From NCBI GenBank assembly GCA_038844785.1, contig JAWBRA010000011.1:1-61449 (forward strand): a stretch of DNA of 61,449 nucleotides, in the 5' to 3' direction. The position numbers and the translations under genes are program-made. Below, in pieces: positions 42,316 through 45,707 of this stretch. Every line of letters starts with the position of its first letter. Position 1 is the first letter of the stretch. The DNA is from Candidatus Caldarchaeum sp. (GTDB taxonomy: Archaea; Thermoproteota; Nitrososphaeria_A; Caldarchaeales; Caldarchaeaceae). The notes beneath the pieces are model-generated. The model saw nothing but the letters and a program-made list of their open reading frames with translations. It searched no databases and was not told the DNA's origin.

Positions 42316-44496
42316 TCAGCCAATCATCATCAAAGGCTTTTCGGAAGCCCGCAGGACCTCGCCAATTCTTTCATACTCTCGCATCATCTGCGGCGATATG
42401 CTGGGCTTGACAACCATCAACGCCTCCTCAAAATCTCTTCTGGTTACTTTTTCAGCGTTCTTGTCCCGGCGTAGAGCCGCCAACGCAGCCTCTCTGCAGA
42501 GCGATTCTATGTCCGCTCCAGAGAAGCCCTCACACCGTGCCGCCAAAGCCTCGATGTTTACGTCGTCAGCTAAAGGCATCTTCCTCGTGTAGATGTAGAA
42601 GATTTCAACTCTAGCTTTCTCGTCTGGCGGTGGGATGAGGAGAAGCCTGTCAAACCTTCCGGGCCTTAGGAGCGCTGGGTCAAGCATGTCAGGCCTGTTA
42701 GTCGCACCTATCACGACTATGTCGGTGAGCTCCTCAATCCCATCTATCTCTGCAAGCAGCTGGCTTGCGACACGGTTTGTCACGCCGGAGCTGTCCTCCA
42801 TCATGTCCTTCCTAGGAGCTATGGCCTCTATTTCGTCGAAGAAGATTATGGCTGGAGCTGCTTGACGGGCTTTCCTGAATATTTCTCGTATGGCTTTCTC
42901 CGACTCTCCAACCCATTTTGAGAAGATTTCAGGGCCTTTTATCGTGATGAAGTTTGCCTCGCTTTCGGTTGCTATGGCTTTGGCGAGCAGCGTCTTCCCG
43001 CAGCCCGGCGGCCCGTAGAGTAACACACCCTTCGGCGGCTTTATTCCAAGCTTCTGGAATTTCTCAGGATACTTCAGAGGCCATTCAATCATCTCGATAA
43101 GCTTCTGCTTGACGTTCTCGAGACCACCTATATCCTCCCACCTGACAGTAGGCGTTTCAATCTCCACCTCTCTCAACGCGCTGGGCGTTATCTCTCTGTA
43201 AGCGTCTATGAAGTCTTTCATCGTTACTTCAAGGCTGTTGAGTATCTCGGGGGATATTCTCTCCCCGGAGAAGTCTATGCTGGGCAGGATACGTCGTATG
43301 GCTTTCATGGCTGCTTCGCGGCAGAGGGCTGCTAGGTCAGCTCCGGTATAGCCGCGGGTCATCTCTCCAAGCTTTTCAACCGACACGTCTTTCGCCAACG
43401 GCATTCCTCTCGTGTGGATTGTTAGAATCTCCGTACGGCCTTTTTTGTCGGGGATACCAATCTCTATCTCTCTGTCGAACCTTCCTGGTCTTCGGAGGGC
43501 TGGGTCGAGGGCGTTGGGCCTGTTTGTCGCCCCTATCACTATCACGGAACCACGGCTCTCCAGCCCGTCCATCAGTGCGAGAAGCTGGGCAACAACCCGC
43601 TTCTCCACCTCGCCAGTGACCTCGCTTCTCTTCGGCGCTATGGCGTCTATTTCATCGATGAAGATTATGCTTGGTGCTTCCTCTTCGGCTTTCCTGAAGA
43701 TCTCTCTCAAGCGTGCTTCAGTCTCGCCGTAGTACTTGTTCATGATCTCCGGGCCGTTTATCAGTATGAAGTTGGCTTCAGCCTCTGTCGCAACCGCCTT
43801 GGCGAGCAGCGTCTTCCCGCAGCCCGGCGGCCCGTAGAGTAACACACCCTTCGGCGGGTCTATTCCAAGCTTCTGGAAAAGCTCCGGAAAACGCAGAGGC
43901 AGCTCTATCATCTCTCTGACTCTCTGTATCTGTTCCTGAAGGCCGCCGATGTCTTCGTAGGTGACGCTCGTCCTCAACGTCTTTTCCTGAACAGTCCTGC
44001 TCTGGATGACCAGCTTTGTTTTCGGAGTGATTTTAGCTATCCCAGTGGGCCGCAGCTGCACCACGGCAAAAGTGAAGAGGTTGCCGAAGAAGAGGACGGG
44101 TATTATGTTCCTGTGTACGACAGGATATTCTATAAGCCTGCTTTTTACAAGCTTTGTAAAGTTTTCATCGGCTTTTATCGAGGTGTTGTAGGGAGCGAGA
44201 ACAACCAGCTGAGCCTCCTTAACATTAGCCTTCCTGACTATGACGTAGTCGTTGAGAGAAACCCCTGCGTTGTTTCTGATGTGGCCGTCTATCCTTATCG
44301 TGTCCTTCTCTTTTTCGTCTTCGACGTATCCCAGCCAGACCGTGGCGGCCGTCAGCTTCTTCCCCCTGATCTCGATTATGTCGCCTGTTGAAAGACCCGC
44401 CTCGGCTCCTACACTCCTGTCTATTCTCGCAATCCCGTAACCCACATCCCTTTGTTTAGCCTCTGCAACCCGGAGCCGAAGTTCCTTAACACTCAT
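42316..44496 (-). CDS. cdc48: CDC48/VCP family AAA ATPase
   Basis: N-domain plus two AAA modules (GPPGCGKT x2, DEID/DEIE, RPGRFDR x2). Confidence 0.97.
42980..43878. repeat. 80-bp direct repeat (42980..43059 and 43799..43878), 2 mismatches, inside cdc48
   Basis: 59 identical nt, then ctt/gtc, then 18 identical nt; offset 819 nt. Confidence 0.9.
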
Positions 44497-44633
44497 TCAC
44501 CCAGATAGGGAAGCATGTAGAATTTAAAGGATAACGGCTTTACGCAGTGTTAACCCTCCGTACGGGAATGAGAGCTTTTATTCTAACCGGCGATAATTAA
44601 AGAGATATAGTGTGGCAGCGGCAGGTAAAAGGC

Positions 44634-45707
44634 ATGGTTGGAAAGACAGGGCTGGACACTATTAGATGGGATGACGACAGGAATGTGCTTGTCCTCTTGG
44701 ACCAGAGAGCCGTGCCCGAGAAAGTCAGGTATGTTAGATGTAGGACGTACAGAGATGTTGCTTTAGCTGTAAAGAACATGACCGTCAGAGGCGCGCCAGC
44801 CATAGGTGTTGCAGCAGCTTTCGGCATAGCACTTGCAGCCCTCAAGTCGCCGGCCAAAACTCGGAATGCTCTCATGCACGACATCTACCGGGCTCAGTCA
44901 GCTCTTTCGAAGACAAGACCAACGGCTGTCAACCTTTTCTGGGCCCTTGAACGAATGGTCAAGAAAGCAGAGCAGCTTGAAGATGGTCCTGATGAGATAG
45001 CGGCCGGGCTTGTTGAGGAAGCCAAGAAAATCATGGAGGAGGATGTGAAGGTGAACAGGATGATAGGCAGGTTTGGGGCTGAGCTTATACCCGACGGCGC
45101 AAGGGTTTTGACGCACTGCAATTGAGCTGCCCACGCCGCTCAGCAGAGTGCTGGAGCTCTTGCGACCGCCGGGTACGGCACGGCGATAGGTGTAATCAGA
45201 GCGGCTTTCGAGTCTGGGAAAAACGTGTCGGTTTACGCCAGCGAGACAAGGCCTAGGCTGCAGGGAGCGAGGCTGACTGCTTTCGAGCTAAAGATGCTCA
45301 ACATACCTGTGACGGTCATACCTGACACAGCCGTCGCATTCCTGATGTCCAAGGGCATGATAGACTGCGCCGTCGTTGGCGCCGACAGGATAATAGCACA
45401 GACGGGACATGTGATAAACAAGATAGGAACCCTTTCGGCAGCCGTCAACGCACACTATTTCAACATACCATTCTACGTTGCAGCCCCCCTGTCAACCATA
45501 GACCTGAAAAAATCTGTGGATGAAGTGGTGATCGAGGAGAGGTCTGAGGACGAGGTTCATTACGTCGGTAGAACAAGGATTACCCCGAAAGGCGTCAAGG
45601 CCCTTAACTACGCCTTCGACATAACACCGCCGGAGCTTGTTACAGCCGTCATAACGGAGAAAGGCGTTTTCAAGCCGGGTGAGCTTAAAAAATTCCTCTT
45701 AGGCTAG
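44634..45707 (+). CDS. mtnA: S-methyl-5-thioribose-1-phosphate isomerase, interrupted by a 27-nt putative intron (join 44634..45121,45149..45707; 348 aa)
   Basis: [23 protein letters not shown]|[35 protein letters not shown] and FDITP motifs; both halves are in the same frame. Confidence 0.9.
45122..45148 (+). other. putative BHB-type archaeal intron in mtnA mRNA
   Basis: CTGC-[AA^T]-TGAGC-loop-GCTCA-GCAG-[AG^T]; contains an in-frame TGA; excision regenerates CAC TGC AAT GCT GGA (HCNAG). Confidence 0.8.

Follow-up and report, generated by a model that had tools for sequence, protein, structure and literature searches.

A probable bulge-helix-bulge intron of 27 nucleotides in the archaeal mtnA gene and its homologues at the same codon

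INTRODUCTION

Splicing at bulge-helix-bulge (BHB) motifs has been described for very few archaeal messengers. An intron in the pre-mRNA of cbf5 was reportedly described by Watanabe in 2002. The available part of PMC2738675 (Yokobori 2009) places the cbf5 introns between bases 1 and 2 of the codon for a catalytic Asp, and has them cut between the second and third bases of the bulges. In Haloferax volcanii, HVO_1309 carries a 46-nucleotide (nt) BHB intron in its 5′ untranslated region (UTR), which is handled by a homodimeric enzyme; besides this one, cbf5 is the only archaeal mRNA case reported in the part of that 2020 source available to us (PMC7714728). Here we analyse a stretch of 61,449 nt from Candidatus Caldarchaeum sp. 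(contig JAWBRA010000011.1), called the window below, in which mtnA, the gene for S-methyl-5-thioribose-1-phosphate isomerase, is interrupted by 27 nt (45122-45148). It is highly likely, in our judgement, that this insert is an RNA-level intron of the EndA (BHB) type in the mtnA pre-mRNA. The genome holding the window (G000 among our genome labels) consists of 57 contigs, 1.74 Mb in all, with a G+C content of 50%.

RESULTS

The mtnA frame is interrupted at the codon after a conserved cysteine

The whole mtnA gene occupies positions 44634-45707 of the window on the + strand, as do all its parts named below. Its start was set by us at ATG 44634, GTG 44610 being an alternative. Translation and the match to the Pfam IF-2B profile delimit exon 1 (44634..45121), which begins at this ATG and ends with AA, the opening two positions of the Asn codon that comes after the Cys of the THCN motif. 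We take this Cys to be the catalytic residue, as in Bacillus MtnA. Around the break the DNA reads ACG CAC TGC AAT TGA, followed by 24 further bases and then GCT GGA GCT; in translation, THCN is succeeded by a stop, by the eight residues AAHAAQQS and, in an unchanged frame, by the exon 2 protein. Translation of an unspliced messenger stops after 163 residues at the in-frame TGA (45123..45125). Exon 2 (45149..45707, stop codon included) is bounded by its IF-2B match and by the end of the open reading frame (ORF).

Positions 2-115 of the IF-2B profile are matched by the first half of mtnA and positions 117-280 by the second. Since the profile continues in this way across the break, the 27 nt of 45122-45148 are exactly surplus, and they are also surplus relative to intronless relatives. 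Their excision leaves 1044 nt, that is 348 codons. The identity of the gene was examined with a query protein carrying an X at the stop and retaining the eight intron-coded residues. It scored 380 bits with the NCBIfam model TIGR00512 (salvage_mtnA; cut-off 279) and 418.7 bits with NF004326 (cut-off 271), and stayed below the cut-off of the ribose-1,5-bisphosphate isomerase model (192 versus 314 bits).

Inserts at the same codon are found in 61 loci

The read-through MtnA protein was used to search 41 related genomes, including all 18 genomes of the window's family (f1). In eight further family genomes mtnA was broken at the same residue, and in seven genomes of the same genus it was unbroken. 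Family-wide, the insert is present in nine of the 16 genomes whose mtnA spans the site; the remaining seven are precisely intronless, and intronless mtnA genes read CAC TGY AAY GCN GGN with no remnant of an insert. The nine inserts measure 27 nt (G000, G014 and G017), 29 nt (G007, G004, G003 and G015), 33 nt (G016) or 34 nt (G013). The two longest come from one genus and differ by a 1-nt indel in the intron loop, which leaves one insert in frame and the other out of frame.

We then turned to 401 genomes sampled evenly across the phylum; in 375 of them the C-terminal half of MtnA has a match at E ≤1e-45. Patterns built on the exon flanks matched 28 genomes in a first form and 30 in a relaxed form, and reversed controls matched none. 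G322 and G205 were removed from these matches; 29 of the 30 obtained with the relaxed pattern are real. The 29 insert-bearing genomes fall into six families of the phylum: nine in f1, seven in f13 (of eight sampled), two in f22 (of two), nine in f35, and one each in f42 and f59. The class has three further families; in these, with matches in 19/19, 4/4 and 34/35 genomes, no interruption of mtnA was detected. In metagenomes, a pattern with fixed exon flanks and 18-48 free interior bases retrieved 34 contigs; 32 are mtnA with a hairpin insert at the site, and two (L120 and L145) are unrelated chance matches. In total, inserts occupy the identical mtnA codon at 61 loci, 29 in species genomes and 32 on metagenome contigs, and represent 39 distinct sequences of 19-34 nt.

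Removal of the insert is obligatory and the protein fixes the cut register

The length of the insert is not a multiple of three in 26 of the 39 variants and an in-frame stop is present in 32; every variant has one or the other. Removal of the insert is therefore obligatory for a full-length product.

The register of removal can be read from the codon that follows the Cys. The 5′ bulge is AAA in 24 variants and AAT in 15, so that in the former group the unspliced codon would be AAA (Lys), while every intronless homologue examined (24 related loci and 73 named loci) has Asn at this codon. On the 3′ side, the bulge opens with AA, AG or AT, and its third base is T in 37 variants and C in two; these two, from G398 and G275, have an exon 2 starting with C and give an AAC codon. 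When both bulges are cut behind their second base, AAT or AAC, both Asn, results in 39/39 variants. This is the only register to do so: by our own reading of the sequences, a shift of one base in either direction produces Lys or Ser in some of them. The cut register is thus fixed by the protein.

After splicing in silico, the nine family genes have open frames of 349-394 codons, and full-length open frames were likewise obtained for 18 further genome loci. All metagenome loci with enough flank also give full ORFs, aligning to MtnA from end to end with 51-95% identity.

Both mtnA exons are under purifying selection, with ratios of non-synonymous to synonymous substitution (dN/dS) of 0.05-0.25 in unsaturated pairs. 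Values were 0.17 for G000/G007, 0.17 for G000/G004, 0.25 for G007/G004 and 0.052, at dS 0.46, for G016/G013. Taken separately, each exon stays below 0.45 in every unsaturated pair. Intronless mtnA pairs within the genus gave 0.06-0.08.

These results bear on several claims of the original prediction, made from the window alone. It had stated that 27 extra nt with an in-frame TGA separate two otherwise intact halves, and sequence, translation and Pfam agree. Its cut by the EndA rule, giving HCNAG and a protein of 348 residues, holds well beyond the window, with Asn restored in all 39 variants and full ORFs recovered. The comparison of related mtnA loci that it proposed has now been carried out and revealed structured, covarying inserts at the same site, with no relaxation of selection on the halves.

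The insert and its flanks are predicted to fold into a relaxed BHB motif

The predicted motif spans both exons and the intron (27 nt, 45122..45148). The 5′ strand of its central helix, CTGC (45116..45119), is exonic, being made of the last base of the His codon and the Cys codon. It pairs with the intronic GCAG (45143..45146), which forms the 3′ strand. Between this helix and the inner one lies the 5′ bulge AAT (45120..45122), with a predicted cut at 45121/45122. The inner helix, TGAGC (45123..45127) with GCTCA (45138..45142), closes a 10-nt loop (45128..45137) whose length and sequence vary between homologues. On the 3′ side, the bulge-like AGT (45147..45149) contains the other predicted cut, 45148/45149, and T45149 would become the third base of the Asn codon.

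Folded as RNA, 45100-45165 pairs CUGC with GCAG and UGAGC with GCUCA, leaving AAU bulged out between the two helices, and so reproduces the central helix, bulge, inner helix and 10-nt loop first proposed for this site. Two hallmarks of a BHB are present: the predicted cut sites are separated by a central helix that is exactly 4 bp long (CTGC/GCAG in the window), and the 5′ bulge, AAU, has 3 nt and is flanked by the central helix and a 5-bp inner helix. The fold has an energy of -27.8 kcal/mol (z = -2.3), and three of 200 shuffled sequences were as stable. This is a modest signal: the window fold alone would make a plausible but weak case for a BHB, and it is comparative evidence that decides. 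A scan of the window against Rfam at gathering thresholds returned no match, and ARAGORN found no tRNA in it.

The helices covary

For pair counts on the 39 distinct introns, positions were anchored from both ends. The central helix is paired in 156/156 cells, with U-A/U-G, G-C/G-U and C-G/U-G variation, and the central and five inner pairs together are paired in 344/348 cells. We also aligned 37 insert sequences with MAFFT (alignment A2) and compared them with 500 partner shuffles as controls. In A2, 98.8% of cells are paired versus 83.8% after shuffling, 69 cells are changed on both sides versus 20.3, and the covariation score is 0.621 versus 0.321, a value matched by 0/500 shuffles. Slid registers of the same alignment are only 24-53% paired. 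For the two measures based on counts of pairs or of pair types, the alignment did not surpass its shuffles (224/500 and 500/500). The sequences being related, the shuffle counts are not to be read as probabilities; despite this kinship, many independent compensatory types are seen. All five inner-helix pairs show such types (e.g. U-A/C-G, G-C/A-U, C-G/G-C/U-A), and the first three of them form in 111/111 cells of the 37 sequences. Within the family, the nine inserts by themselves are 95.4% paired, with five pairs changed on both sides.

A complete central helix (4/4) together with an inner helix of at least 4 bp is present in 25 of 29 introns, versus a mean of 0.016 of 29 when the intron bases are shuffled. 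A covariance model, R1, recognises 45116-45149 in the window at 33.6 bits (E 2.9e-5).

The genome encodes two EndA-like paralogues and RtcB

Two paralogues matching PF01974 (tRNA_int_endo) are encoded in the genome, at 99 and 56 bits. One, alpha-like (C5:24213-24461), is a protein of 179 residues which matches the endA model TIGR00324 above its cut-off; the other, of 189 residues (C20:19718-19975), resembles the endA and beta-subunit models only weakly and is beta-like. From these matches, the two would probably form a two-subunit alpha/beta enzyme able to cut relaxed motifs. Cleavage of relaxed BHB motifs by two-subunit splicing endonucleases is described in the available parts of PMC5829648, PMC2724299 and PMC10485636. 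RtcB is also encoded (C23:13956-15293; 569.5 bits).

Distribution on the tree and search for similar introns in other genes

A quick maximum-likelihood tree of the C-terminal half of MtnA was computed from 101 rows and 185 columns; metagenome rows were excluded and 40 intronless rows were picked by hand. The 29 intron-bearing genes form four clusters on it. A family search with amoA, intended to help position the remaining intron-bearing families, had no match, but neither did its control in any genome.

Covariance model R1 was run on the 18 family genomes, where it recovered 9/9 mtnA introns at 33-36 bits. Outside mtnA it returned nothing convincing in these genomes, with five other matches at E 0.019-0.88. 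The best of them (G000 C6:33898-33952, equivalent to L246:1501-1555; 23.1 bits, E 0.019) covers the Gly-rich nucleotide-binding motif of a flavoprotein with 48 in-frame bases. It was rejected as a chance look-alike because it lies inside an uninterrupted flavoprotein N-terminus. We also scanned the whole of G000 for a 4-bp helix with 3-nt bulges, an inner stem of at least 4 bp and an intron of 18-150 nt, followed by a test for ORF fusion. This gave 70,190 structural candidates, of which 1,718 passed the ORF filter, and the filter proved non-discriminating. The use of tRNA introns as an internal comparison was dropped, as BHB-like pairings needed 63 slid registers, which was too permissive.

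ARAGORN also reported tRNA introns of 250, 646, 841, 997, 1394, 1455 and 1575 nt on G000 contigs C13, C14, C17, C27, C47 and C6. Introns of such length may have been created by the program, or they may be genuine and perhaps ORF-bearing.

Surroundings of mtnA

Upstream of mtnA, an A+T-rich stretch, ATAATTAAAGAGATATA (44590-44609), was noticed by eye about 25-40 nt before ATG 44634; it could be a candidate TATA-like promoter element of a leaderless or short-leader transcript. Divergently oriented is an ORF of 726 residues (42316-44496, - strand) in which two AAA ATPase-type nucleotide-binding motifs can be read by eye, and whose product looks Cdc48/VCP-like in our own reading of its sequence. 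A second, distant gene of the IF-2B family lies elsewhere in the genome (C17:29113-29622, - strand) and is uninterrupted; it has paralogues in G002, G003 and G005, at about 34-38% identity.

DISCUSSION

A model for excision

The data are consistent with the following scheme. The exon would supply CUGC, from the end of the His codon and the Cys codon, together with the AA that opens the Asn codon. The intron would bring the complementary GCAG and its own hairpin, and a 4-bp central helix would form with the exonic CUGC. This helix would be flanked by the 3-nt bulge AAU on the 5′ side and by a looser 3-nt bulge or internal loop, AGU, on the 3′ side. EndA, probably of the two-subunit alpha/beta type, would cut after the second base of each bulge, and ligation of the exons by RtcB would rebuild the Asn codon and the frame of 348 codons. 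A messenger left unspliced would end at the TGA right after the splice site. That splicing takes place, and that EndA and RtcB are its agents, is what we infer from motif, register and gene content. The original prediction held that mtnA depends on this removal, which is supported by the 39 inserts that all block translation, by the covarying helices and by the purifying selection on the exons; its further idea that splicing "gates" methionine salvage is speculation.

Observations that weigh against a BHB intron

Several observations speak against this interpretation, the first group of them concerning the 3′ splice site. The minimum-energy fold of the window places that site in a 1×1 loop and a 3-bp helix instead of a clean 3-nt bulge. 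When the flanks are shortened this fold changes; in single-sequence minimum-energy folds of eight short constructs, the expected arrangement appeared in four, with z from -0.55 to -2.75. One exon base opposes three bases at the 3′ site, and the outer helix has at most 3 bp. Among 42 flank variants, all three outer pairs form in 26, a count partly imposed by the search pattern, and in two the 3′ site can merge into a continuous 4-bp helix. The strict and relaxed forms of the motif are named hBHBh′ and HBh′. A 3-nt 3′ bulge closed by an outer helix, as the strict hBHBh′ form requires, is absent from the mtnA insert: the motif is a relaxed BHB, with one well-formed bulge plus H and h′. A weak outer pairing and a relaxed motif had in fact been predicted for the window, and the short outer helix and imperfect 3′ bulge bear this out.

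RNA data form the second group. Four metatranscriptome runs, three available as contig sets and one as raw reads, were mapped on mtnA; none of them contained a spliced mtnA joint, at a coverage that was thin throughout, and the raw-read run (X4) gave 0 reads on mtnA from about 3% of its data. A contig of 486 nt from run X2 (depth 4.1) crosses the site unspliced and has the 29-nt insert found in a close relative. This contig may stem equally from residual DNA, which such libraries can contain, or from pre-mRNA, and it weighs mildly against efficient splicing.

Lastly, the distribution is patchy. At least six gains or losses are needed on the tree (versus 25.3 with shuffled labels), five of them forced by well-supported branches, and the intron-bearing G003 nests with the intronless G002 and G006 inside the genus. 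Such a pattern fits old inheritance followed by repeated precise losses, as proposed for cbf5; the mtnA intron may instead have been gained repeatedly.

Among the RNA data, one more contig drew our attention. This X1 contig, 183 nt long, covers 44969-45121 and so stops matching exactly where the 5′ cut is predicted. Its remaining 30 nt repeat 44969-44998 without a mismatch, although its opening 30 nt depart from the window at three positions. With one nucleotide more it would have satisfied our rule for a bridging record. It might be a chimera, or a fragment of exon 1 joined back on itself as a circle.

Other explanations of the insert

The imperfect 3′ site would also suit removal of the insert from the RNA by an enzyme other than EndA and RtcB, or cutting without ligation as a decay signal. 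This alternative we judge improbable: a 4-bp helix combined with a 3-nt 5′ bulge and with cuts that follow base 2 at either site is what characterises substrates of the archaeal splicing endonuclease, two-subunit enzymes do cut relaxed motifs according to the available parts of PMC5829648, PMC2724299 and PMC10485636, and decay alone would not keep the downstream frame. The ribosome might also bypass the insert during translation. Phage T4 gene 60 is an example of such hopping, and many variants do have a stop right after the last exon-1 codon, at the base of a hairpin; stop and hairpin after the take-off codon could promote the hop. Yet the take-off codon is AAA in 24/39 variants and the codon preceding exon 2 is AAT, AGT, ATT or AAC, so that the two are mostly mismatched, and the product would contain Lys where every intronless homologue has Asn. 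Moreover, the 4-bp helix between exon and intron, paired in all 156 cells, is not needed for hopping, which we hold to be very improbable here. Recoding of the TGA, as selenocysteine or otherwise, was rejected on account of the 26 of 39 homologous inserts that are not multiples of three.

The in-frame stop or frameshift present in all 39 variants, together with the one unspliced contig from an RNA library, is also what would be expected had the insert inactivated mtnA and turned it into a pseudogene in these lineages. This idea too we hold to be very improbable. Neither half has been shortened, both evolve under purifying selection with dN/dS at 0.05-0.25, the insert recurs at 61 loci in six families, and its helices covary; a decaying gene would not hold to one site, one structure and one Asn-restoring cut register. 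That both halves are intact ORF segments would suit a split gene, whose halves are made as separate polypeptides and assemble into an active enzyme. Exon 2, however, has no start before GTG 45225, the use of which would lose the conserved AGALAT segment, and the covarying RNA structure and rebuilt Asn codon would be left unexplained; a split gene is extremely improbable. The 57-contig metagenome assembly could, finally, have introduced the insert as an assembly or sequencing artefact. This had been raised as an alternative at the outset and is refuted by the homologous inserts of 28 other species genomes and 32 metagenome contigs, all independent assemblies; the probability left to it is practically nil. 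A BHB intron spliced at the RNA level therefore stays our preferred explanation of the insert.

Significance and comparison with known introns

If spliced as proposed, mtnA would join cbf5 as a second archaeal gene with such an intron in its coding sequence; its product acts in metabolism and not in RNA modification, and its hosts fall outside the classical Crenarchaeota. With 19-34 nt, the introns are very short, and nature has supplied 39 variants of them with which the substrate requirements of the two-subunit endonuclease could be explored. There is a practical side for annotation: without knowledge of the intron these mtnA genes read as truncated or frameshifted, and metabolic reconstructions may wrongly score mtnA as broken. 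No published link between a BHB intron and mtnA, methylthioribose-1-phosphate isomerase or eIF-2B-like genes was found in our literature search, subscription journals and supplements lying outside its range.

A broader idea can be put forward, which we regard as unlikely. The mtnA intron would belong to an old class kept by selection, tying the production of MtnA to the tRNA-splicing machinery; with cbf5, it would show that archaeal BHB introns in mRNA prefer the codons of catalytic residues, these alone being conserved enough to act as the exonic half of the motif. Were such a preference true, more hidden introns should be expected among genes annotated as "split" or "pseudo" in thermophilic Thermoproteota.

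Among described systems, archaeal tRNA introns share the logic of the motif with the mtnA intron, namely a 4-bp helix, 3-nt bulges and a hairpin, and presumably the enzymes too. Sizes are also similar, 12 tRNA genes of the genome having introns of 12-84 nt according to ARAGORN. In contrast to tRNA introns, the mtnA intron resides in an mRNA, where conserved codons take the place of the anticodon arm as the exonic half of the motif. The HVO_1309 intron resembles that of mtnA in being a BHB in an mRNA and in involving the splicing endonuclease; it differs in lying in an untranslated leader, where no frame is interrupted.

The closest counterpart is the cbf5 intron, which in the available part of PMC2738675 is that of Desulfurococcales and Sulfolobales. 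Both introns lie in coding sequence, show a relaxed BHB and follow the same cut rule. Both are found in archaea with a hetero-oligomeric EndA, a probable one in the case of mtnA, and both seem to have been lost in some lineages. Each is placed near a catalytic residue, that of cbf5 within the Asp codon and that of mtnA behind base 2 of the Asn codon beside the Cys, a location which in both genes may be due to the splice motif requiring exon sequence that does not vary. The cbf5 gene of the window's genome is itself uninterrupted, its TruB_N matches falling in a single stop-free frame of 285 residues. The cbf5 intron is backed by cDNA and in vitro cleavage, whereas that of mtnA is known here from sequence comparison. 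Unlike the cbf5 intron, it resides in mtnA, occurs in a Caldarchaeum-like family and five others, and measures 19-34 nt. The mtnA intron would thus very probably be the second BHB intron reported for an archaeal coding sequence, of a kind already known from cbf5.

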